Virus record (IMG/VR): IMGVR_UViG_3300045988_014597
Location: 1 to 34,082 of that record
Origin: a virus
Taxonomy: Duplodnaviria; Heunggongvirae; Uroviricota; Caudoviricetes
Length of the DNA stretch: 34,082 bases
Direction: 5' to 3' (one strand)
Position numbers and translations under genes: made by a program. Shown here in pieces: positions 1 through 34,082 of this stretch (its first letter is position 1; each line of letters begins with the position of its first letter). The notes below the pieces were generated by a model. The model did not search any database and was not told where the DNA came from. It saw only the letters and a list, made by a program, of their open reading frames with translations.

Positions 1-23
1 CCCTATTATATTGGGGTGTGCAA
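1..23 (-). promoter_or_regulatory. Partial family B promoter (TTGCAC-N17-[TACTAT outside window]) pointing leftward out of the window
   Basis: Reverse complement of 1-23 is TTGCACACCCCAATATAATAGGG, nearly identical to the -35 and spacer of the promoter at 21236-21258. The -10 would lie just before position 1. Confidence 0.45.
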
Positions 24-130
24 GTAGTGTGCTAGAATAAGTTTGCGCCTAGTGTCGCACACGAAAAGCGGGTGGTTCCCGTCTGGCGCATTAACCTTAA
101 CCTGTAACCTCTTAACCAAAGGATTAAAGA

Positions 131-4816: not shown

Positions 4817-7362
4817 TCCTGCACTACACGCGAAACGCTGATGGCGCTTTCGACCGTACAAAACACGTCGGGATGCCGATGGAGTTTGTTGTTAACCGTA
4901 TCCCTGACGGCGTGCCTGTGCGCGTCTACCTCGGTGAGATTGGTGATGATACTGACGTAACGGACGACTTCGATGCGCTTAAAGACGATGACGCGGTGTA
5001 CCATATTATTGAGGGTGCCGGTGGTGGGATAGGTAACGCCATTGGTAAGGTATTTGGTTTTATCCTTAAGCCAATTGCCAAGTTATTTGGCCTGAACAGG
5101 TCCACTAACGCCAACTACACGGCGATTAACAACCAGACAACGTCACCGAATAACAGCCTCACAGACCGCTCCAATAAGCCGCGCCCTTACGAGCGCTCCT
5201 ATGACATCTGCGGGACTGTACAGACAATCCCTAATGACCTGATGCAGACGTATAAGGCGTTCAACTCCACAGGCGCTTTGCTGGAGTATTCGTACTATGA
5301 CGCAGGGCGCGGGCATCTGCATATTGAGGCTGATGGCGTCACAGAGGGCGACACCCTGATAAGCGACATCACAGGCTCCTCTGTTGCCGTGTATGCGCCG
5401 TATACGTCGCCGAACAACACCACATCTCCGCAACTACAAATCGGTGACGTCATTGACCAGAAACTCTATGTGACATACTCCAACGACGACGTTGACGGTA
5501 TTGTATTGAAAGCGCCAAACGACATCGGGGCTAACCCAAGCGCCGGTGGCACCGCCAAACGTATTTCAACCACCGGCTACATCTACGACCCGTCAGGCGA
5601 CTCCGCTTTTTCTGAGTTTCTTAGCGTCGGTGATGTCGCGGTGCTGAGCAACTTTGATGTTAAGGACGTCACTAACCTGAACGGCTCGTTTGAGGTTTTA
5701 TATGTCGACGACTTTGAGGTTCGGTTGTACGTCGGGGATATAGGTAACTGGGGCAACCTTAATAGCGGAGAGACTTACGCACTTACAGAGCGTTCAGATA
5801 CGTTTATAGGCCCAAGCAACACGTACGATGTGTCTCTTACAGACTGGTACTACATGGTTCGCGGAGAGGTTGACCGGGTGCTAGCTAATGTTGCCGGGCA
5901 GAACGGCCTCTACAAATACGACGGCGGCTATAACCGCACCAGCGTAACCGTAGAACTCCAGTACCAGATGATTGACTCCCAACGTAACCCGTTGAGCGAT
6001 ATCTACACGGTACAGGCCACAATTACAGGCAATAATACTGACTACGTCGGCACGTCCATTTATGGGCAGTTACCGACAGCATCGCGCTTCCGCGCCCGTA
6101 TGCGCCGTGTGACTAATTTCGACAAGGACTACGACGGTACCGTAAGTGACGAGATAACCTTCATCAACCTGTATGGGCAGTCTCTTGACACAACCCCACA
6201 CTACGGCAACCGAACTACCGTACATTGCGCCCGTAAACAGACGCCGCGGGCCGCGAGTATCGATAACCCGGAACTGCGCATGATTGCAACCGAGATGTGC
6301 TACAAATATCTCGGTAATGGGGTATTCGATACGGTAATGACTCCGAACACGCAGGCGGTGCAGTCACTAATCAGACTGGCACGCGACCCCGCAGTTGGTA
6401 ATCTGGAACTGACAACGGCAAATATGGACAAGTTACTTTCCGTGCAGGAAGAGATTGAGTCCTATTTTGGTAGCGAATTAGCGGGGCAGTTCTGCTACAC
6501 GTTCGACGACTACGACACCACGATGCAGGACATCGTTCAGACTATAGCGGAAGCCGTGTTCTGCACCGCGTACCGTAAAGGCGCGGATATTATGCTGCGA
6601 TTCGACCGTCCGGTTGCTGGGCCTGAGATGGTGTTCACCCACCGCAGCAAAACGACCGGTACGGAGAAATGGACCCGCACGTTCAACGATTCGACAACCT
6701 ACGATAGCCTGTCATTCTCGTACATTGACCCTGATACTAACGTACAGGAAACGATTTATATCCCGGAAGAGCTAGGCGCAAATACGGAGGAATACGAATC
6801 AAAGGGCGTGCGCAACTATCAGCAGGCGTACTGGCTGGCGTGGCGTCGCTACCAACGCAATGCGTTAAGTAAAGTTGTCGTAGAGTTCGAAGCTACGGAA
6901 GAAGGCGCTCTCGCTACCCCGGGTGGCGTAATCAGCGTGGTTAAAGGTTCACGTATCGCACCCCAGGATGGTTATGTTGTTGCCGTTAATGGGCTTACAC
7001 TTACGCTGTCCCAGCCTGTTACGTTTACTCCCGGGGACGACCACGCCATCATCCTCAAGAAGCGCGACGGCTCTGTGCAGAGTATCTCTGTTATAAAAGG
7101 AAGCCATGACCGCGAGGTTATTATGCTATCTGCGCCGGAGGAGGCAATCTACACGGGGAATAGCGCACTAAAAACTGAGTTTTCATTCGGCAACGAAGCA
7201 AGGCATAATGCTCAGAAGATAGTTGTTTCTTCAATCGACCCTGGCGACGACCGCACGGTCAAGATTACTGGCTACAACTATGACGACGGATTCTATAAAT
7301 ACGACGGCGTCGCACCTTTAGGTCGCGGTTTCTCCGACGGATTCAGCAATGGTTTTAATTAA
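4807..7362 (+). CDS. Tail tip / host specificity protein (gpJ-like central fibre), 851 aa
   Basis: Large ORF after the K-like gene. Start uncertain: TTG at 4807 with GGAG upstream, or an internal ATG near 4873. Confidence 0.6.
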   Translation: MAIILHYTRNADGAFDRTKHVGMPMEFVVNRIPDGVPVRVYLGEIGDDTDVTDDFDALKDDDAVYHIIEGAGGGIGNAIGKVFGFILKPIAKLFGLNRSTNANYTAINNQTTSPNNSLTDRSNKPRPYERSYDICGTVQTIPNDLMQTYKAFNSTGALLEYSYYDAGRGHLHIEADGVTEGDTLISDITGSSVAVYAPYTSPNNTTSPQLQIGDVIDQKLYVTYSNDDVDGIVLKAPNDIGANPSAGGTAKRISTTGYIYDPSGDSAFSEFLSVGDVAVLSNFDVKDVTNLNGSFEVLYVDDFEVRLYVGDIGNWGNLNSGETYALTERSDTFIGPSNTYDVSLTDWYYMVRGEVDRVLANVAGQNGLYKYDGGYNRTSVTVELQYQMIDSQRNPLSDIYTVQATITGNNTDYVGTSIYGQLPTASRFRARMRRVTNFDKDYDGTVSDEITFINLYGQSLDTTPHYGNRTTVHCARKQTPRAASIDNPELRMIATEMCYKYLGNGVFDTVMTPNTQAVQSLIRLARDPAVGNLELTTANMDKLLSVQEEIESYFGSELAGQFCYTFDDYDTTMQDIVQTIAEAVFCTAYRKGADIMLRFDRPVAGPEMVFTHRSKTTGTEKWTRTFNDSTTYDSLSFSYIDPDTNVQETIYIPEELGANTEEYESKGVRNYQQAYWLAWRRYQRNALSKVVVEFEATEEGALATPGGVISVVKGSRIAPQDGYVVAVNGLTLTLSQPVTFTPGDDHAIILKKRDGSVQSISVIKGSHDREVIMLSAPEEAIYTGNSALKTEFSFGNEARHNAQKIVVSSIDPGDDRTVKITGYNYDDGFYKYDGVAPLGRGFSDGFSNGFN

Positions 7363-7374
7363 AGAGGACTCTAT

Positions 7375-9255
7375 ATGTCAAGCGGATGTGGTGACGTTTT
7401 AAGCCTGGCGGATTTACAAACCGCCAAGAAACACCAGATTTTCGAGGCCGAGGTTATCACGGGTAAGTCCGGTGGGGTTGCTGGTGGTGCTGATATTGAT
7501 TACGCGACCAATGCGGTTACGGGTCAGACGCAGAAGACACTCCCGGCGATACTGCGCGATACTGGGTTTTCTCCGGTATCGTGGGATTTTTCCACAGGCG
7601 GAACGTTAACAGTTAATGACCGCGACAAAGTGGTTTATGACCCTGTAAGCAAAACGTGGTATTCATACACCGGTACACTGCCGGTGACCGTTCCAGCTGG
7701 GTTTAACCCCGTGGGCAGTGCTGACTGGAAACCCCAGACGGACCCAGATTTGAGGGAAGAACTAGCGGATACCAGTAGTATTGTTAATGGTGATGCTTTA
7801 GTGGGAGTGCGCCAGCCTTTTGCCGGTGCTGTTTCCCGTACTCAGCATGATAAAAATAAAGAATATGTATCTGTTACTGATTTCATCACGCCGGGTGAGT
7901 CAGACTCTGCGGATAAGACTTACGCGTTCCAAGCGGCTGTCGACTCTCTTACATCTGCGGGTGGTGAAATTCACATTCCAAATGGTGGATTTTGGGTAGT
8001 AGAGGGTATTGTAACTCTTAATAAATCAGTAACTATAAGAGGGTCAGGGTCTACCCCAACTACGTTAATTAAAAAAAGTAACACAAATTCCACGTTTTTT
8101 AATGTGGCGGAGGAGTCATGCTCCATCCGCGACCTACGATTGATAGGTGCTGCGGGTTCTACCGGTGGTTTCGCGATCACAACGGCGACAAACGCAAGTC
8201 GTCTCCATATTGATAACGTGCAGATTCGAGCTACGCACAGTGGTATAAATCTTAAAGCAAATTTATTTTCGTTGTCACATATAGAAATCGTGGACATTAA
8301 CTCACCCGGTGGGGTAGGAATTGAGGTAGACCAATCCGGCGTAGTAGACGGGGTTGGCCTCATCACATCAACTGTTATACAGAACGGCGATGGTGTAGAA
8401 CCCTACGCAGGCATATTTCTAAGGCACGCTATCGGCATCCTTATATCTGATACTCAGTTGATGCAGGCAGGTAAAGCGATGGTAATGCAGCCCGGAGCTA
8501 CTCAGGGTGTCAGCTCTATAAAAATAGTTAATACATATTTTGATACATCAGATGATGGTGGGCTTTTTATTGATAATACCTCCGGCGGGGATATCTCCCG
8601 TATAACAATCGCCGATTCTTGGTTAGCAAGCAGTAAAAACAGTTCCGGGTTAGTTATTCAGGCCGGGTCCAATATCCGTGGCCTCAAAGTATCCTCTTGC
8701 GAATTCTATGACAGCATTACCGGATTAAACGTAGGTGATAATACTGTAGTGCAAAATTTAGACGTAAGTGATTGTGTGTTTTCTGGGCACACAGCCGCGG
8801 ATGTTTCAATAGGCACTAACGTTTCAAATTTCTCGTTCACTAATTGTCGTTCTGGTGCCCTAGGTGGTTTCGCCGCTTCCCCATTTGGGTTATATATAAA
8901 CCCTGGCTGCGGCAACTTTAGCGTAATAGGTAATGAATTCCATGCTATAAACGATGCATCATACCCCTCTAGCGGGGTACTTATCGCCGATAACCGCCAA
9001 TGGGGCTTCGCTCAGGTTACATATGACCCTCCCGTAATCGCTCCAGTAACAAGTATAGAGAGCACAATAGGTGTACCGGGGGCCAGGCCAGGCGATGTAG
9101 TTGATATATCGTTTACCACAGATTTACAGGGGGTTCTTCTCCTTGGTTGGGTATCTGGTAACGATGTTGTGTCGTTCAGGATGTTTAATAGCACAGGTGC
9201 TAATAGGGATTTAGGGGCAGGAATAATTAAGGCAAGAATAAAAAGAATGTCATAA
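7375..9255 (+). CDS. Tailspike / tail fibre with pectate-lyase-like right-handed beta-helix (putative depolymerase), 626 aa
   Basis: N-terminal region of about 130 aa followed by repetitive beta-helix-like segments (IRDLRLIG, NVQIRATHSG, SSCEFYDS, SDCVFSGHT). The 3' two thirds is visibly AT-richer than neighbours. Confidence 0.7.
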   Translation: MSSGCGDVLSLADLQTAKKHQIFEAEVITGKSGGVAGGADIDYATNAVTGQTQKTLPAILRDTGFSPVSWDFSTGGTLTVNDRDKVVYDPVSKTWYSYTGTLPVTVPAGFNPVGSADWKPQTDPDLREELADTSSIVNGDALVGVRQPFAGAVSRTQHDKNKEYVSVTDFITPGESDSADKTYAFQAAVDSLTSAGGEIHIPNGGFWVVEGIVTLNKSVTIRGSGSTPTTLIKKSNTNSTFFNVAEESCSIRDLRLIGAAGSTGGFAITTATNASRLHIDNVQIRATHSGINLKANLFSLSHIEIVDINSPGGVGIEVDQSGVVDGVGLITSTVIQNGDGVEPYAGIFLRHAIGILISDTQLMQAGKAMVMQPGATQGVSSIKIVNTYFDTSDDGGLFIDNTSGGDISRITIADSWLASSKNSSGLVIQAGSNIRGLKVSSCEFYDSITGLNVGDNTVVQNLDVSDCVFSGHTAADVSIGTNVSNFSFTNCRSGALGGFAASPFGLYINPGCGNFSVIGNEFHAINDASYPSSGVLIADNRQWGFAQVTYDPPVIAPVTSIESTIGVPGARPGDVVDISFTTDLQGVLLLGWVSGNDVVSFRMFNSTGANRDLGAGIIKARIKRMS

Positions 9256-9260
9256 AACTA

Positions 9261-9285
9261 AGGCCCCGTTTGGGGCCTTTTCTCT
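9261..9285. terminator. Bidirectional intrinsic terminator between convergent tail and replication modules
   Basis: AGGCCCC-GTTT-GGGGCCT hairpin flanked by an A-run upstream and a T-run downstream. Confidence 0.7.
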
Positions 9286-9424
9286 ACTCTTCAGATAACT
9301 TCTCCAGTACAAACGCCAGTTGCGCATTAGCGGCATCCCTCTGTTGCCGTAACCGCAGAACCTCTTCTTCAAGCTCCTTGATACGTTTTTGCAATGCTGG
9401 AATCGGGGCTATGATGTTCATCAT
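9284..9424 (-). CDS. Small coiled-coil hypothetical protein, 46 aa
   Basis: Reverse-strand ORF (MMNIIAPIPALQKRIKELEEEV...) whose ATG overlaps the stop of the upstream gene (ATGA). Too short for the ORF track. Confidence 0.3.
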   Translation of the reverse strand: MMNIIAPIPALQKRIKELEEEVLRLRQQRDAANAQLAFVLEKLSEE

Positions 9425-9612
9425 TCGAACTCCATAAAATCACCATTTACCGACTCTGTGTAAATTAGTCCTGTTCTATCATCGTAGCACGCACCCCAAC
9501 GATTGGCAGTGTTATCCATCACCACGAATTGCCCATCACCTTTGTACTCCGCAGCATAATAATTACCTTCATCGAAAACACCTATAGTAGAACTTACGCA
9601 AAACAGTTTCAT
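9421..9612 (-). CDS. Hypothetical protein, 63 aa
   Basis: ORF in the reverse-strand operon, contiguous with the helicase gene. Confidence 0.45.
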   Translation of the reverse strand: MKLFCVSSTIGVFDEGNYYAAEYKGDGQFVVMDNTANRWGACYDDRTGLIYTESVNGDFMEFE

Positions 9613-11033
9613 TTCTTACCTCGTCTCTTCATGTAATTAAGCAATTCTTCCTGTACTGATTTCTTCTCGTCGGTACGCGCGGCAACAACCTCGTCCAGCG
9701 TGTCTTTAGCGACGATGTGATAGAGGAACACCGGGCGCTCGTGGCCTGCCTGTTTCTGGCGTACGGGACCTATACGCTCGACAACCTGCAAATAGTGCTC
9801 AAGGTTCCAGCCTTGCGAGATGAACGCCAGATGATGCCCGCCGTCCTGTAAATTCAAACCATGGCCCGCTGACGCAGGATGTACGCATAGGATTTCGATT
9901 TCTCCACGGTTCCACGCTTCCATCTGCTTATTACCCTTAGCGCCTTTGGCGAATGCCTGGGCCTGCGGGAATCTCTTAAGGATGCGCTCCAGTTCGTGCT
10001 TAAACTGATAAGCCACAAGCAACGGCGCACCCTGTAACTCCTCGACAATGGACTCAAGCGCATCCAGTTTCGTGTCGTGCACTTTCTCCCAGTCTTTCGT
10101 TGCTTCTCCATCAGGCCCCGACACATACACGGCACCAGAAGCAATCTGCAGACACTTCGACGTCTTCGCCGCCGCGTTAGCCGCTTCAACTTCCCCGCTC
10201 TCGAGTTCCGCGAATAGCTTCTCCTCCATATCGATGTACGCCTGACGCGCTTTCTTCGGCAGGTCGATTTCAACCGGTACAATAATCGGCGCTTCACAGC
10301 CGAACCATTCGGCGGCGTCAATCGTGAGACTAATGTCCTTCATCTTCTGATGAATTTCATTATCTGCGCCCGGGCGTGCATGGTATTCACGGGCCATCGC
10401 TGACTTACCTTTCTGTACCGAGTTGAACCAGCGGTCGGTGAATGCTGTGTACGATGAACCAAGTCGCTCGCCTGCGTCGATAAACCAGTTCTGCCCCCAC
10501 AAGTCCTTGAGGCCGTTCGGTGATGGTGTACCTGTCAGGTTAATGAACCGCTTAACCTTACCGAACGCCACTTTACTAAGCGCCTTTGCCCGCTTGCTGC
10601 CGCCTGAACGGCTGCGGAATGATTTCAGCTTCGTGCTTTCATCGGCAACAATAACTGTAAAAGGCCAGTCGTCTTTGCCGTAGTAGTCAATCAGCCACTC
10701 GATAACTTCGTAGTTGGTACAAATCACATTGGCGTCAGACTCCAGCGCCGCGATACGGCGCTTCTCTGAACCTGTCGCATCTACGACATTCAGACACGGG
10801 AATTGCCATTTCTCTTGTTCTGCTGGCCATGTGCCGGACGCAACGCGCAGCGGGGCGAGTATTAACACGCGGTCATCGTCCGTAAGTTGCCCATTGCGAA
10901 ACAGGCGGTTGAGTACCCACATTGTCGACGAGGTCTTGCCGCCGCCCATACCGCACCAGATATTGCAACGTGGGTGCTGTAGTATAAACGACGTCATTAT
11001 TTTCTGGTACTCGCGCCTTTGAAACTTAGACAT
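9609..11033 (-). CDS. SNF2/DEAD-like ATP-dependent helicase, 474 aa
   Basis: Walker A CGMGGGKTS and a DExx box (VIVADEST), plus a C-terminal helicase region. Confidence 0.8.
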   Translation of the reverse strand: MSKFQRREYQKIMTSFILQHPRCNIWCGMGGGKTSSTMWVLNRLFRNGQLTDDDRVLILAPLRVASGTWPAEQEKWQFPCLNVVDATGSEKRRIAALESDANVICTNYEVIEWLIDYYGKDDWPFTVIVADESTKLKSFRSRSGGSKRAKALSKVAFGKVKRFINLTGTPSPNGLKDLWGQNWFIDAGERLGSSYTAFTDRWFNSVQKGKSAMAREYHARPGADNEIHQKMKDISLTIDAAEWFGCEAPIIVPVEIDLPKKARQAYIDMEEKLFAELESGEVEAANAAAKTSKCLQIASGAVYVSGPDGEATKDWEKVHDTKLDALESIVEELQGAPLLVAYQFKHELERILKRFPQAQAFAKGAKGNKQMEAWNRGEIEILCVHPASAGHGLNLQDGGHHLAFISQGWNLEHYLQVVERIGPVRQKQAGHERPVFLYHIVAKDTLDEVVAARTDEKKSVQEELLNYMKRRGKK

Positions 11034-15275: not shown

Positions 15276-15338
15276 AGTTCAGCCCTCATTAAGTTTAGAT
15301 TTTAAGTTTACTCCGGGAACTGCCCGGCCAGTGATTTA

Positions 15339-15368
15339 ACTATAATAGCTTACTATTCAGGTTGTCAA
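15339..15368 (-). promoter_or_regulatory. Family A sigma70-like promoter (TTGACA-N18-TATAGT) with embedded palindrome GAATAG-N4-CTATT
   Basis: Reverse strand reads TTGACAACCTGAATAGTAAGCTATTATAGT; palindrome at 15344-15357. A CCGGG-N5-CCCGG hairpin at 15313-15327 lies in the 5' leader. Confidence 0.6.
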
Positions 15369-17562: not shown

Positions 17563-17593
17563 TTGTTTCTCTCCTCTCGTTTGGTATGGGCTA

Positions 17594-17623
17594 ACTATAA
17601 TAGCAAACTATTCATGTTGTCAA
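17594..17623 (-). promoter_or_regulatory. Family A sigma70-like promoter (TTGACA-N18-TATAGT) with embedded palindrome (T)GAATAG-N4-CTATT
   Basis: Reverse strand reads TTGACAACATGAATAGTTTGCTATTATAGT; palindrome at 17599-17612. Divergent from the HTH gene promoter. Confidence 0.6.
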
Positions 17624-17687: not shown

Positions 17688-17903
17688 ATGCAACCATCTG
17701 AACTAGGCATCCGTGTAGAACAACGCCGCAAAGAACTCGGCATCTCCCAGCGCCGTCTGGCCGTCCTGGCTGGCGTTTCCCAGGGCGCAATTAACCAGCT
17801 GGCACTTGGGGTAACTCAGGACGTCCGCCCGGCGACGCTGTTCAAACTGGCGGAAGTGCTGCAAGTAGACGCCAAGTGGCTGGCGTTAGGTGAAGGGGCT
17901 TAA
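17688..17903 (+). CDS. XRE-family helix-turn-helix transcriptional regulator (Cro/CI-like), 71 aa
   Basis: LGISQRRLAVLAGVSQGAINQLALG helix-turn-helix; AAGGAG RBS; sole + strand gene inside the reverse-strand replication module. Confidence 0.85.
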   Translation: MQPSELGIRVEQRRKELGISQRRLAVLAGVSQGAINQLALGVTQDVRPATLFKLAEVLQVDAKWLALGEGA

Positions 17904-20245: not shown

Positions 20246-20695
20246 TTATTCAGCGTTTGGTACTGCAAGAGCATACACGCCATCCAGCACCTTAATCAAC
20301 AAACCTTTTTTACAAAGCCCGCGCATGGCGGTACAGACATCACCAAGATTAGTGACATCATCTTTTACCATGGCGTATACCGCACTAGGCGTAAAACGTT
20401 GTCCTTGCTGTTCAAGACATTTTCCATAGACTAATTTTTGTAACTCCGTAAGTTGGCCCTTCTCGGGAAAAGGAACGGATATAACATTGGATGGTTTCCC
20501 ACCTTTAACCCAATACAGGTACTTACTCCCATCATAAACACGGTCTATCTCCCCGAAATACCCAAGCAATGAAATCGCGGCGCTAATTGGCCCGTCGAGT
20601 TCTATTGCAGATTTAATGTCATGCAGTGACGCTCCCGGGTTCTCGGCTAATATCATATTTAACGATTTAAGAAACTCGTCTAAGTATTTATGCAT
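20246..20695 (-). CDS. Hypothetical protein, 149 aa, possibly winged-helix DNA-binding
   Basis: Second gene of the reverse-strand operon; C-terminal region resembles a winged helix. Weak assignment. Confidence 0.55.
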   Translation of the reverse strand: MHKYLDEFLKSLNMILAENPGASLHDIKSAIELDGPISAAISLLGYFGEIDRVYDGSKYLYWVKGGKPSNVISVPFPEKGQLTELQKLVYGKCLEQQGQRFTPSAVYAMVKDDVTNLGDVCTAMRGLCKKGLLIKVLDGVYALAVPNAE

Positions 20696-20831
20696 TCTTC
20701 TTAGCCTCTCTTAATTGTTTGCGATATGCATTGAAACATTCACGGCAATAACTGCGTGTGCCTTTTCTGTCATATCGTTTGAGGAATGCACCTTCTTCTT
20801 TTTCTTTCCTACACATCTGGCAAATCTTCAT
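20688..20831 (-). CDS. Small zinc-ribbon protein, 47 aa
   Basis: MKICQMCRKEKEEGAFLKRYDRKGTRSYCRECFNAYRKQLREAKKNA with two CxxC pairs; strong GAGGAG RBS; stop overlaps the downstream ATG. Confidence 0.45.
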   Translation of the reverse strand: MKICQMCRKEKEEGAFLKRYDRKGTRSYCRECFNAYRKQLREAKKNA

Positions 20832-20889: not shown

Positions 20890-20926
20890 CAACAAAGTTA
20901 CTAAGATACAAAAGATGCTACTGATA

Positions 20927-20955
20927 TTGACTTTTCACTGAAAATATGCTAAGCT
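20927..20955 (+). promoter_or_regulatory. Strong sigma70-like promoter with extended -10 (TTGACT-N17-TGC-TAAGCT), copy 1
   Basis: TTGACT at 20927-20932, TG at 20947-20948, TAAGCT at 20950-20955. Confidence 0.6.
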
Positions 20956-21037
20956 CCACCTGAGCTTGTGAAGTATGAACAAGCGACCGCGGTGCGGCAG
21001 GAGAACGGAGCGGTGCGTTAGCACTGAGTGTAGTGTC
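20927..21037 (+). repeat. Dispersed direct repeat R1 (promoter plus conserved leader), about 110 bp
   Basis: Aligns with 33971-34082. The first ~66 nt differ at 2 positions; the remainder has two single-base indels and more substitutions. Confidence 0.85.
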
Positions 21038-21155
21038 GCTGCCCGCATTCGGAAGGCCCATAGTCTATTGTTAATCCAGCCTAAATACCCAAGTCACTGA
21101 TAATTAAAAGTTTCTATAGTTGCCGTGAGCAATGTAGAGAGTACTTCACTCCGCT

Positions 21156-21177
21156 GGGGTGGGCTAACGCCCACCCC
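21156..21177 (+). other. GC-rich hairpin GGGGTGGGC-TAAC-GCCCACCCC
   Basis: Perfect 9 bp stem with a 4 nt loop. No immediate U-tract, so either a weak terminator or an RNA structural element downstream of R1. Confidence 0.4.
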
Positions 21178-21235
21178 CTGCGTTGCGTACTCTTTTAAGA
21201 AACGAAAGAATCACAACGGCAACGTAACTATTCTC

Positions 21236-21264
21236 TTGCACACCCCAACATAATAGGATACTAT
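21236..21264 (+). promoter_or_regulatory. Family B sigma70-like promoter (TTGCAC-N17-TACTAT) with embedded palindrome AATAG-N4-CTATT
   Basis: Palindrome at 21252-21265; the promoter, leader and start share about 63 of 66 positions with the reverse-strand copy near 33841-33904. Confidence 0.6.
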
Positions 21265-21298
21265 TCACTTATCGAAACGAGACATAAGGAATTTAGAA

Positions 21299-21517
21299 AT
21301 GAACAAAGCGACCGCAAGCGTAGTTTCCGCAATCAAAGAAGTTTACGGCATCGATATTTCAGAGCGCGTAATCATCGGTAATAAGCGCAACTTCTTTACG
21401 TTCGACACCGACGGAATGGATGAAAATGATTTTATCAACGTACAACGTTTCGCTAATGATAGAGGGCTTCGTAACGAGCCTGCAGGTTACAAGAAATTCG
21501 CTATCTACTTTAAATAA
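21299..21517 (+). CDS. Hypothetical protein, 72 aa
   Basis: First ORF after the family B promoter; AAGGA RBS. Confidence 0.6.
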   Translation: MNKATASVVSAIKEVYGIDISERVIIGNKRNFFTFDTDGMDENDFINVQRFANDRGLRNEPAGYKKFAIYFK

Positions 21518-25364: not shown

Positions 25365-25394
25365 CCCGGCCCTGACCCAGCCGGGATTTTTTTA
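25365..25394 (+). terminator. Intrinsic terminator after the lysis cassette
   Basis: CCCGG...CCGGG hairpin followed by ATTTTTTTA. Confidence 0.6.
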
Positions 25395-25415
25395 TCTATT
25401 TTCTGCAATGACTAG

Positions 25416-25444
25416 TTGACTATTACCATCGACCCTATTATATT
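25416..25444 (+). promoter_or_regulatory. Sigma70-like promoter (TTGACT-N17-TATATT)
   Basis: Leader ATCGACAACGAGAAC resembles the family B leaders; a degenerate palindrome ACTAG-N4-CTATT overlaps the -35. Confidence 0.5.
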
Positions 25445-30684: not shown

Positions 30685-30706
30685 AAAGGCCCCATTATGG
30701 GGCTTT
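30685..30706. terminator. Bidirectional intrinsic terminator between the portal gene and the convergent methyltransferase gene
   Basis: AAAGGCCCC-ATTAT-GGGGCTTT; the methyltransferase stop codon lies in the loop. Confidence 0.65.
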
Positions 30707-31447
30707 AGCTTTATATGCTTCAGATATGCGTCTTCTGGCTATACGGAAGTAGTCGCGGTCTAGTTCCATACCTATAAACTTCCGGTTTGTGTTCGCACAC
30801 GCAACTCCGGTTGTCCCGCTACCCATACAGTTATCAAGAACTGTATCCCCTTCGTTTGTGTATGTTTTAATCAGGTATTCCATGAGTGCTACTGGCTTTT
30901 GTGTCGGGTGTACTGTGCCACCCTCATTATCAAAACGTAAAACAGAATCTGGGTATCCCGTTTGCGTCTGACGATACGTATCTTTGTGAGAAGGCCGGGT
31001 GTTAACGAAGGCCCTGTCTTTCCTAATATTGGTAAGGGTTACGTCACACTGCCTGACCCCTTGCGGGTTGTATGCCATACGGCGTTCACTTTTATTCGCT
31101 GTGGTCCCTTTGCTGAAAACCGCGATTTCCTCATGCCCTCTTAATGGCTTATTTTTAGCATTAAATACATCACCTTTTCTGCTCTTCACCCATATCCAGC
31201 AGTATTTAAACATATCCATATTTGACGCTATAAGGGCTGTGGTGAACGGCTGCGCACAGGTTAAAACTATAGCACCACGGCCCGTTATTATTCGGGAATA
31301 ATGAAACCATAGTTGGTCAAATGGAAGCACACTATCCCACTTACATGAAGTGGTGCCATAAGGTAAATCGCACAGTATAAGGTCGATACTTTTGTCCGGT
31401 ATGCCGGCCATCAACTCCAAACAATCCCCACGTTTCAAAGTAAACAC
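30695..31447 (-). CDS. DNA methyltransferase, N6-adenine / N4-cytosine family, 250 aa, GTG start
   Basis: Catalytic tetrapeptide region LILCDLPYG (a DPPY variant) N-terminal to the SAM motif VLDNCMGSGTTGVA; GGAGG RBS; own family B-type promoter. Confidence 0.8.
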   Translation of the reverse strand: MFTLKRGDCLELMAGIPDKSIDLILCDLPYGTTSCKWDSVLPFDQLWFHYSRIITGRGAIVLTCAQPFTTALIASNMDMFKYCWIWVKSRKGDVFNAKNKPLRGHEEIAVFSKGTTANKSERRMAYNPQGVRQCDVTLTNIRKDRAFVNTRPSHKDTYRQTQTGYPDSVLRFDNEGGTVHPTQKPVALMEYLIKTYTNEGDTVLDNCMGSGTTGVACANTNRKFIGMELDRDYFRIARRRISEAYKAKAP

Positions 31448-33054: not shown

Positions 33055-33077
33055 AAAAGGCCCCATTACGGGGCCTT
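33055..33077. terminator. Bidirectional intrinsic terminator
   Basis: AAAGGCCCC-ATTAC-GGGGCCTT, nearly identical to the hairpin at 30685-30706; the stop of the convergent reverse-strand gene lies in the loop. Confidence 0.65.
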
Positions 33078-33374
33078 AACTTTCCATACTTCCCTTAGCG
33101 CTACGAGTTTATGATTACCGATATCCCTTGATATTATTGAATCTGTAAAACCATTGAACCATGATTTCATCCAGTCAGACGTTCTGAAATCTGAGTATAG
33201 AATATGTATTGTTTGCGGGGCGTCTACATCGTAATGCTGGCACACATAAACACAACCGCTGGCGAATATAACAGCTTTAAACGTATCGTAGTCTTCTGAA
33301 TCCGGGAACTCGCTAGAGTCCCCGACAAGATATCTGTACGCGTATTTTTTAGTAGTCTTCTTTCTTTTCCGCAT
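33066..33374 (-). CDS. Hypothetical protein, 102 aa
   Basis: ORF in an AT-richer reverse-strand block; basic N-terminus. Confidence 0.5.
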   Translation of the reverse strand: MRKRKKTTKKYAYRYLVGDSSEFPDSEDYDTFKAVIFASGCVYVCQHYDVDAPQTIHILYSDFRTSDWMKSWFNGFTDSIISRDIGNHKLVALREVWKVKAP

Positions 33375-33655: not shown

Positions 33656-33841
33656 TTAGGCCTTACGAATTGTATACCCATACCCAAGGTAGCCGTTTTT
33701 CTCTTGCATAGCGGAGGCGCGAAGCAGAGCAGCATTCTCACCTTTAACTACGGCGACCACATAATCGGTAGCGTCCGGACCGTTTTCTACAACTTCATAC
33801 GCCTGTACGTTCTTGGTGGTAAGTTCATATGTGTTAGTCAT
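33656..33841 (-). CDS. Hypothetical protein, 61 aa
   Basis: Driven by a family B promoter and leader that matches the + strand cassette at 21236-21301. Confidence 0.55.
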   Translation of the reverse strand: MTNTYELTTKNVQAYEVVENGPDATDYVVAVVKGENAALLRASAMQEKNGYLGYGYTIRKA

Positions 33842-33875
33842 TTCTAAATTCCTTATCTCTCGTTTCGATAAGTGA

Positions 33876-33904
33876 ATAGTACCCTATTATGTTGGTGTGT
33901 GCAA
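33876..33904 (-). promoter_or_regulatory. Family B promoter (TTGCAC-N17-TACTAT) with embedded palindrome GAATAG-N4-CTATT
   Basis: Reverse strand reads TTGCACACACCAACATAATAGGGTACTAT; palindrome at 33874-33888. Confidence 0.6.
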
Positions 33905-33970
33905 ACTATTTATTTACCTATTCCAATTATCCCACTAAATTGTAAATGTTGGAATAAACTATTCGAATAG

Positions 33971-33999
33971 TTGACTTTTCACTAAAAATGTGCTAAGCT
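33971..33999 (+). promoter_or_regulatory. Strong sigma70-like promoter with extended -10 (TTGACT-N17-TGC-TAAGCT), copy 2
   Basis: Same architecture as 20927-20955; preceded by the perfect palindrome CTATTCGAATAG at 33959-33970. Confidence 0.6.
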
Positions 34000-34082
34000 C
34001 CACCTGAGCTTGTGAAGTATGAACAAGCGACCGCGGCGCGGGCAGGTAACGGAGCGGGACGTAAGTCCTGAGTGTAGTTACG
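33971..34082 (+). repeat. Dispersed direct repeat R2 (promoter plus conserved leader), truncated by the window end
   Basis: Aligns with 20927-21037. Confidence 0.85.

Follow-up and report, generated by a model that had tools for sequence, protein, structure and literature searches.

The window, by which we mean the whole 34,082-nt stretch of DNA analysed here, is by its sequence about three quarters of a Kagunavirus-like genome (Guernseyvirinae). The Guernseyvirinae are siphophages with genomes of ~44 kb whose hosts are E. coli and Salmonella. The R1 and R2 regions described below matched 201–233 records, and the matches were to the Guernseyvirinae group. The window carries two copies, R1 and R2, of an element, R, in which a promoter is fused to a ~92-nt RNA with two stem-loops (P1 and P2) that starts at +3. 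From the promoter spacing we infer transcription starts at ~34006 for R2 and 20962 for R1. The features of the two loci, together with a regulator gene further upstream, are:

17688 to 17903, plus strand: gene for a 71-aa XRE-family helix-turn-helix (HTH) protein (Pfam HTH_3, E = 1.2e-12), with operator-like sites upstream at 17598 and 17643.
20927 to 20955, plus strand: predicted R1 promoter, TTGACT at 20927-20932 and -10 TAAGCT at 20950-20955, with no operator-like half-site upstream.
20962 to 21070, plus strand: R1 leader RNA core, with P1 at 20964-20984, the P2 rod at 20987-21052 and the conserved tail GGAAGGCCCATAGTCTATTG.
21071 to 21196, plus strand: R1 3' domain and terminator, with AAGTCACTGA at 21091-21100 and a long hairpin at 21139-21192 (GC core 21156-21177), then TTTT.
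21236 to 21264, plus strand: predicted family B promoter downstream of R1, TTGCAC-17-TACTAT, with an embedded operator-like site at 21251-21266.
33876 to 33904, minus strand: predicted family B promoter divergent from R2, -35 at 33904 to 33899 and -10 at 33881 to 33876, with an embedded operator-like site at 33874-33889.
33917 to 33964, no strand assigned: half-site array of the divergent control region, CTATTCC at 33917-33923, GGAATAA at 33951-33957 and CTATTC at 33959-33964.
33959 to 33970, no strand assigned: perfect 12-bp palindrome CTATTCGAATAG, centred at -41.5 given the inferred start at 34006.
33965 to 33980, no strand assigned: operator-like site of canonical spacing, GAATAGTTGACTTTTC (GAATAG-TTGA-CTTTTC), over the R2 -35 hexamer; one mismatch, the eleventh such site.
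33971 to 33999, plus strand: predicted R2 sigma-70 promoter, -35 TTGACT at 33971-33976, 17-bp spacer, TG at 33991-33992 and -10 TAAGCT at 33994-33999.
33995 to 34011, no strand assigned: perfect inverted repeat AAGCTC-N5-GAGCTT, from the -10 hexamer to +6 (-11 to +6).
34006 to 34082, plus strand: R2 leader RNA, with P1 at 34008-34028, a GA linker, the P2 5' strand from 34031 and the apical hairpin at 34055-34070.

The operon layout was taken from the whole-genome annotation of the relative Golestan. There the rightward R2 operon carries spanin-like genes, scaffold, major head protein, head-tail connectors and tail, and the other rightward operon, that of R1, carries about ten small genes, holin, endolysin, more small genes, terminase, portal and head morphogenesis; leftward-read replication genes separate the two. 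R is always in the same orientation as a long operon and directly ahead of it. The window starts ~9 kb downstream of the point at which R2 would continue, so that the window end is an arbitrary cut. A scan for tRNA and tmRNA genes found none.

An earlier note on this DNA had described R2 as a second copy of a promoter-leader element that runs from 33971 to the window edge. This description was upheld by a repeat finder, in which 33971-34078 matched 20927-21034 over 108 nt at 88% identity (family D1), and by the covariance model match given below. The repeat is clearly beyond chance; the similarity begins exactly at the -35 hexamer TTGACT and extends to the window edge, R2 comprising 33971-34082. 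The two loci also share family B promoters, which are the arms of inverted repeat I1 (21236-21302 versus 33838-33904, 67 nt, 96% complementary), and the one at 33876 to 33904 on the minus strand serves minus-strand genes from 33841 to 33066. The distance between R2 and this divergent promoter, put at ~65 bp in the note, was measured as 66 bp, and the other I1 arm was indeed found ~200 bp downstream of R1 as the co-directional family B promoter that the note had placed there. We agree, too, that the same parts, R and family B modules, are arranged differently at the two loci. That R2 arose in assembly or duplicates the end of a contig was the note's own condition for refutation; the sole point in its favour is that R2 touches the window edge. 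Against it, R2 and R1 differ at 12% of positions and have different flanks, and the R2 locus, its palindrome and its downstream genes recur in independent complete genomes and in IMG/VR contigs. The artefact reading is refuted by this recurrence, and we give it virtually no chance.

The R promoter is near-consensus for sigma-70, TTGACT-17-TGcTAAGCT, in which TGcTAAGCT would make an extended -10, and its architecture is identical in R1, R2 and all relatives. The R promoters are the strongest-looking in the genome. The inverted repeat AAGCTC-N5-GAGCTT has two matches in the window, both in R copies, versus 0.09 expected; in relatives its arms are kept and its spacer varies.

The perfect palindrome CTATTCGAATAG that the note had reported directly upstream of R2 is present at 33959-33970. 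It is made of the same half-sites as the promoter-embedded palindrome, and it is missing from R1, where CTACTGATA occupies the equivalent place. The upstream flank of R2-type copies is AATTGTAAATGTTGGAATAAACTATTCGAATAG followed by TTGACT, and CTATTCGAATAG is kept in all listed R2-type copies, with the single exception of locus L033 (CTATTTGAATAG); R1-type copies have another conserved upstream sequence, unlike that of the R2 type. Taken alone, the 12-bp palindrome is unremarkable and within chance: the window holds three perfect 12-bp palindromes versus 7.9 +/- 2.6 in shuffles, and a match to the 12-mer within two mismatches turned up in 72 of 100 shuffles. The recurrent unit is GAATAG-N4-CTATTC, a 16-bp sequence with half-sites one helical turn apart, which has 11 sites within two mismatches versus 0.95 expected. 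Thus the everted, spacer-less 12-mer of the note exists, but it is probably not the recognised unit. The site at 33965-33980 overlaps it such that the right half of the 12-mer is the left half of a canonical 16-bp site. When scored with a matrix built from the other ten 16-bp sites, 33965-33980 gave 16.0 bits, more than any other position of the window outside the training set; the next-best position reached 9.5 and the equivalent position in R1 -13.2. The left half of the 12-mer (CTATTC, 33959-33964) is probably an extra half-site within the array at 33917 to 33964, which is nearly invariant in 32 distinct R2 loci; the position of its centre, -41.5, allows that the 12-mer may also be a separate site.

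The ten other 16-bp sites all lie within promoter cores, with centres at ~-13.5, -18.5 and -33.5. The centre is at ~-18.5 in family A promoters (TTGACA-18-TATAGT) and at ~-13.5 in family B promoters (TTGCAC-17-TACTAT), and the site at 25410 (GACTAGTTGACTATTA) lies over the -35 hexamer of a promoter at 25416, in the register of the R2 site. Nearly every promoter, on both strands, is covered by such a site. The register of the sites relative to the promoter varies, which points to a repressor that occludes it and away from an activator of fixed geometry or a new type of promoter. The pattern expected of XRE/Cro-type operators, a fixed-spacing inverted repeat found at promoters and beside the regulator gene, was observed, and the 71-aa XRE protein, the one DNA-binding regulator that can be recognised in the window, is a reasonable candidate for the binder. 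As in the Cro/CI-type operator arrays of XRE regulators, there are many copies over core promoters and two beside the HTH gene; unlike those arrays, the sites are in a virulent phage, lie on nearly every promoter and on both strands, and are sites of predicted binding only. This motif has been published for Kagunavirus as a PHIRE 'phage promoter', tgAATAGTa-ccTATTat-T, and was not discussed as an operator (PMC9825357); Kagunavirus genome papers list it as seven PHIRE 'phage promoters' and credit it to a phage RNA polymerase (PMC9825357; PMC7203180). The annotation of the Golestan genome includes no RNA polymerase. From the sites and their positions, the published 'phage promoter' motif is probably a genome-wide repressor site, and the second R copy, unlike the first, is probably under an operator. 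If the XRE protein were an early repressor, it would be counter-intuitive for a promoter of late genes to carry an operator.

The RNA encoded by R has the following architecture. P1 is a 6-bp hairpin, GCUUGU / loop GAAGUAUGA / ACAAGC, from +3 to +23, and is followed by a 2-nt GA linker. P2 is a rod of ~67 nt, from +26 to +91/92, formed by CCG/CGG, a bulged base and helices P2b, P2c and P2d, and it contains an asymmetric internal loop, GGAG on the 5' side and an invariant GAGUG(U)AG on the 3' side. The apical 6-bp hairpin of P2 varies (GGGAC/GUCC, GGUGC/GCAC, GGGGC/GCCC, CACGU/ACGUG, GUGCC/GGCAC). Single-sequence folds gave one architecture in all but one of 18 variants. In a gap-poor seed alignment with the structure written by hand, 94% of cells were paired and four pairs had changed on both sides, i.e., were compensatory; when the structure was slid by 1-3 columns as a control, ~33% of cells were paired and no pair was compensatory. 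A covariance model built from the seed retrieved 48 copies from 44 sources. Over 29 distinct sequences, paired cells made up 95.1% and 12 of 30 pairs showed changes on both sides, versus 32–40% and 0–2 pairs in the slid controls. Two columns had three pair types each, C-G/U-A/A-U and U-A/A-U/G-C. The 29-sequence alignment leans towards the structure because it was fitted to the model; the hand-made seed agrees with it. The twelve compensatory pairs indicate that RNA pairing in P2 is under selection. The model matched R1 with 116.9 bits (E = 3.8e-25) and R2, at 34006-34082, with 81.8 bits (E = 6.8e-17) over model positions 1-76 of 107, the 3' end being missing; the window ends inside the 3' strand of P2d.

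P1 is invariant except in one variant, R1e, in which the loop is altered, one pair has become U-G and there is an extra G-C pair. These changes are compatible with the hairpin and are weak evidence for it. In most copies the P1 loop contains a -10-like AAGTAT at +10 to +15 (NANNAT type), which is absent from R1e. Across variants, ORFs of 41, 36, 22 and 17 codons start at an ATG in the P1 loop, and a coding role for the leader was rejected because of a frame-shifting 1-nt indel in Golestan R2 and the lack of a Shine-Dalgarno sequence, as read by eye. Two further assignments made by eye, an RfaH ops-like sequence in the apical hairpin and a k-turn or loop-E motif in the internal loop, were dropped since they were inconsistent across variants.

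In λ, the strong, constitutive-looking promoter PR' gives a terminated transcript of ~200 nt, the 6S RNA ending at tR', beyond which lie the lysis and morphogenesis genes. The layout of R resembles this PR'-qut-6S RNA-tR' arrangement, followed by lysis and structural genes, and raises the question of whether R works as DNA: a protein bound at the promoter DNA would load onto a sigma-paused polymerase, as λ Q does at qut, and the RNA would be a by-product like 6S. The DNA from -35 to +30 is invariant, the perfect AAGCTC-N5-GAGCTT spans -11 to +6, and the -10-like AAGTAT lies at +10 to +15, all of which would suit such a mechanism. Unlike λ, however, R shows selection on RNA pairing, in the twelve compensatory pairs of P2, and the -10-like element is not kept in R1e. 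Nor was a Q homologue found: among 30 small ORFs searched against Pfam and PHROGs there was no Q- or N-type antiterminator, and the only hits were to HTH_3, DUF2737, NinH and families of unknown function, though a novel protein could play the part. We judge a Q-like mechanism decidedly unlikely.

R is a previously undescribed structured leader RNA specific to one lineage, the Guernseyvirinae. By blastn it was found in 181 phage records, all Guernseyvirinae, of which at least 43 were Kagunaviruses with two copies. An exact-pattern scan of IMG/VR gave 41 loci, on contigs nearly all of 41–45 kb; a degenerate pattern gave many chance matches, and the model confirmed only Guernseyvirinae-type contigs among them, most of 41–45 kb. 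There was no blastn match to R in 5,426 E. coli genomes, and the one match among 185,579 species genomes was a chance match, negative with the covariance model. We found no paper describing the RNA. The R2 locus is at the same place and nearly invariant in more than 30 related Guernseyvirinae genomes, and in 32 distinct R2 loci the segment from ~-50 to the spanin-like ATG is almost invariant. Between Golestan, a Kagunavirus, and ER1, a Jerseyvirus, the R2 locus is 92–98% identical, versus 57–93% for the flanking genes.

ER1 has a single R copy, R2. At the position equivalent to R1 it has another strong-looking promoter, TTGACA-17-TAAGTT, a different leader of ~280 nt, a hairpin and a family B promoter. 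The 3' halves of this alternative leader, of the R2 leader and of R1 leaders have TCTATT and AGTNACTGA in common, which suggests that the whole leader is an old two-domain unit whose 5' domain exists in at least two forms. In locus L013 an R1-type rod is present at the R2 position, pointing to exchange between the copies. The best explanation is that R2 is the ancestral copy, always present and heading the head-and-tail operon, and that R1 is a paralogue, found in some Kagunaviruses, heading the other rightward operon with its small genes, lysis genes, terminase and portal.

The lack of R at the R1 position in Jerseyviruses also speaks against the idea that R transcripts prime or activate replication, as at T7-type origins. 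R1 does lie at the minimum of cumulative GC skew, where the replication and rightward operons diverge; the R core is followed by an AT-rich stretch; and a family A DNA polymerase and a helicase-primase, i.e., a T7-like replisome, are annotated in Golestan. The skew is uninformative on the origin, since it follows gene orientation, and R2 is not at a skew turning point. Repeats of AAGTNACT, considered as iterons, were not enriched. An origin function appears very improbable.

Both leaders continue beyond the R core to a terminator-like hairpin. The position of the R1 hairpin is kept in relatives and its sequence differs. In Golestan and ER1 the R2 leader runs for another ~100 nt to the hairpin GCCCCGC-TTTAA-GCGGGGC, then TTTACTT; 18 nt separate the end of the hairpin from the spanin-like ATG, and no promoter intervenes. 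Relatives thus have, after R2, a conserved 3' domain, a terminator and then the spanin-like, scaffold and capsid genes. In the ~5 kb after R2 in Golestan (5240-10290) there was no consensus plus-strand promoter, and its R2 operon had just three plus-strand terminators, that of the leader, one behind the capsid gene and one at the operon end. A hairpin at 683-706 of the window was rejected as a conserved internal terminator; it is also present in ER1 and is absent from Golestan. Every terminator of the R1 operon has a fresh promoter behind it (21236, 25416), and the operon therefore does not strictly require processive antitermination. The U-tracts of the leader terminators are interrupted, and these terminators may simply leak.

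The order of a structured, conserved 5' domain, a terminator and a gene is that of a sensor-type attenuator, a riboswitch or protein-binding leader in which a ligand of the 5' domain would decide whether the terminator forms ~100 nt downstream, and the conserved, purine-rich asymmetric internal loop between covarying helices could be a binding site of this kind. Several observations speak against it. The 5' domain and the terminator are ~100 nt apart, and one 5' domain occurs with four unrelated R1 terminator sequences, which makes a conserved alternative pairing unlikely. Partial complementarities between P2 and the terminator arms, read by eye, were inconsistent across variants and between R1 and R2, and an antiterminator pairing of these segments was dropped. 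Rfam 15 gave no match at the gathering score for the whole window; at E ≤ 10 the segment 20900-21300 gave two matches, both at chance level and both outside the R core. An attenuator is, in our estimation, unlikely.

The conservation of the full R2 transcript, almost invariant across genera from promoter to terminator, raises another possibility, that R1 and R2 are free-standing non-coding RNAs of ~215–235 nt, ending at the terminator and acting in trans, for instance by binding or titrating a host or phage protein via the conserved internal loop or by base-pairing. The downstream genes would then be expressed from other promoters or by terminator leak. Each copy has its own terminator-like hairpin, that of R1 is followed by a separate promoter, and the operator on the R2 promoter would fit an RNA expressed early. 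The movement of P2 variants between the R1 and R2 positions (L013) likewise suggests that the RNA itself is the functional unit. On the other hand, R is always co-oriented with, and directly ahead of, a long operon, and the spanin-like gene lies only 18 nt past the R2 terminator with neither its own promoter nor a consensus promoter in the next 5 kb. The 3' tails, CUUUACUU in R2 and UUUU in R1, lack the long uninterrupted U tail of Hfq-dependent small RNAs, and R was rejected as a member of that class. A duplex scan of 50 phage translation-initiation regions, which is a crude test, found targets no better than did shuffled RNA. A trans-acting role is the main rival to the reading preferred below and a real possibility, albeit one that we consider somewhat unlikely.

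The closest known parallel to R is found in the put RNAs of HK022, which form two stem-loops joined by a linker of 1–2 nt from the first transcript bases and occur as two copies behind two promoters with terminators downstream (PMC9378689). Like putL and putR, R begins with the first transcript bases behind a strong sigma-70 promoter and forms two stem-loops with a short linker, and in Kagunaviruses two similar copies lie behind two promoters, with terminators downstream. The second put stem has a conserved middle that is prone to non-Watson-Crick pairing, and P2 of R is similar. In R phages, as with put, one finds no recognisable antiterminator protein dedicated to the task. A parallel to putL would be the -10-like NANNAT element of the P1 loop, which R1e has lost. 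The two differ in that R is ~92 nt versus ~72 nt for put, and in that R phages are virulent Guernseyvirinae with R on late or structural operons, whereas put phages are temperate lambdoid phages with put on early operons. Neither did the sequences match: the R model had no match in put regions at E ≤ 10, and a put model from 11 putL/putR sequences, which as a control scored HK022 putL at 98.9 bits and putR at 79.2 bits, gave only chance-level matches in coding regions of the window, Golestan, ER1 and L037, and none at R. Local alignment of R and put was not significant (14/500 and 79/500 shuffles). Membership of R in the HK022 put family is ruled out by the models in both directions and by the pairwise alignment; the likeness to put is analogy, not membership. 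R also resembles the λ N/nut and rrn boxB-boxA-boxC leaders in being a hairpin-containing leader near the start of two operons, and by eye its short, conserved, single-stranded (C/G)UCUAUU after the hairpins loosely resembles boxA, GCUCUUUA. Unlike those leaders, R has no convincing boxA and no N-like protein, and its apical loop is unconserved among variants.

The structured RNA at +3, the terminators, the promoterless gene after R2, the co-orientation and the lack of a Q or N protein fit a leader that controls elongation in cis. Our tentative preference, which we hold to be quite possible without calling it probable, is therefore a cis-acting leader, put- or nut-like by analogy, that would pass RNA polymerase through the terminator that follows, with the R2 promoter also under the global operator system. 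The folded leader would act on the RNA polymerase that is transcribing R, either alone, as in HK022 put, or with a phage or Nus factor, as in λ nut, and the polymerase so modified would run past two terminators, that of the leader and that behind the capsid gene. If the phage XRE protein uses the 16-bp sites as its operators, it would throttle R2 and almost every other phage promoter, leaving R1 free. A put-like element predicts that only the 5' domain should matter, whereas the R2 leader is almost invariant throughout, in its 3' domain and terminator as well, and this fits a discrete functional RNA at least as well. A broader proposal seems to us doubtful, namely that enterobacterial phages have in R a second class of nascent-RNA processive antiterminator, of independent evolutionary origin. 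The folded 5' leader would then remain associated with host RNA polymerase, alone or with a small phage factor so far unrecognised, and take it past the leader and post-capsid terminators. An RNA switch, in place of a late sigma factor or a Q-type protein, would thus govern the late genes of these virulent phages, many of which are candidates for therapy.

The Guernseyvirinae, including Kagunavirus and Jerseyvirus, are common phages of E. coli and Salmonella and are often proposed for therapy. We found no transcription study of the subfamily; the genome papers list only PHIRE 'phage promoters'. A leader that is supported by covariation, lies at the head of the structural operon and is more conserved than the adjacent capsid gene offers a handle on the timing of late-gene expression. 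By analogy with put, a role for R in terminator read-through is plausible. If R does act on RNA polymerase, it would be only the second put-type RNA, with a different fold, and the ability of an RNA to make polymerase resistant to termination could be tested in a second system.

Three relatives have features that bear on R1 and R2, the window's two copies of a sigma-70 promoter fused to a folded leader RNA:

IMG/VR contig 3300045988_039442 (L013), 2220-2328: copy at the R2 position, with the 12-bp CTATTC/GAATAG palindrome upstream
Salmonella phage ER1, 40370-40690: Jerseyvirus leader at the R1-equivalent position
Golestan (a Kagunavirus), 5720-5790, outside the window: second occurrence of the R2 upstream modules, in swapped order, upstream of the scaffold gene

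The L013 copy stands at the R2 position and carries a P2 rod (a part of the folded leader) of the type found in the window's R1, a sign that the two copies may have recombined or undergone gene conversion. In Jerseyviruses the R1-equivalent position is occupied by another strong promoter, unlike that of R1, with a different leader of about 280 nt. The 3' half of the ER1 leader contains two CUAUUC motifs and is similar to the R2 leader's 3' domain by local alignment, with a score that was reached in 4 of 300 shuffles. In Golestan the modules run GAATAGTTGCCTTGCA, TGTTGGAATAATTTATTC and then TTGACA with a poor -10, and TGTTGGAATAA occurs only twice in the whole genome. The Golestan segment may be an activator-dependent late promoter.

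Two kinds of feature adjoin R1 in the window:

20688-20831, minus strand: 47-aa CxxC...CxxC zinc-ribbon ORF, the immediate upstream neighbour of R1, divergently oriented
20895-20902 and 21091-21098: AAGTNACT, on both sides of the R1 promoter-plus-core

The ORF has weak PHROG matches, which fall in the zinc fingers of HNH, endonuclease VII and Lar-like proteins, and its position is occupied by an HTH_17 gene in the relatives Snoke and KMB36. The flanking octamer is also present in the relatives' leaders; it showed no window-wide enrichment (6 sites against 3.6 expected).

The 16-bp site GAATAG-N4-CTATTC, candidate operator of the XRE-family protein, is embedded in further promoters:

25365-25444, mid R1 operon: terminator CCCGGC...GCCGGG with T-run, followed directly by promoter TTGACT-17-TATATT
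15337-15368 and 17592-17623, minus strand: direct repeat D6, two family A promoters (TTGACA-18-TATAGT) whose spacers contain the 16-bp palindrome

Within the R1 operon the site (25410-25425) overlaps the -35 hexamer, and its register matches that of the R2 site. A divergent pair of sites, at 17598 and 17643, lies upstream of the XRE gene itself.

Terminator-like hairpins were found at three other places:

683-706: very strong hairpin, GGGGCGGGC-CAGAAT-GCCCGCCCC, then TTTTT
30685-30721 and 33056-33092: direct repeat D4, a bidirectional terminator present twice, AAAGGCCCC-loop-GGGGCCTT

The first lies within the second tail-chaperone ORF, with the tape-measure gene downstream; a terminator-like hairpin occupies the corresponding position in ER1, and Golestan has none there. 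The D4 copies border small cassettes on the minus strand that are inserted between operons of the plus strand.

One more likely promoter lies at the start of the window:

11-130, plus strand: likely promoter TTGGGG-16-TGcTAGAAT (extended -10), with leader

It overlaps, back to back, a truncated family B promoter at 1-26. Between it and the tail chaperone gene at 131 is a leader of about 80 nt with nested hairpins (GCGCC...GGCGC). With its leader, this promoter would add a third type of promoter-leader, heading the tail operon.
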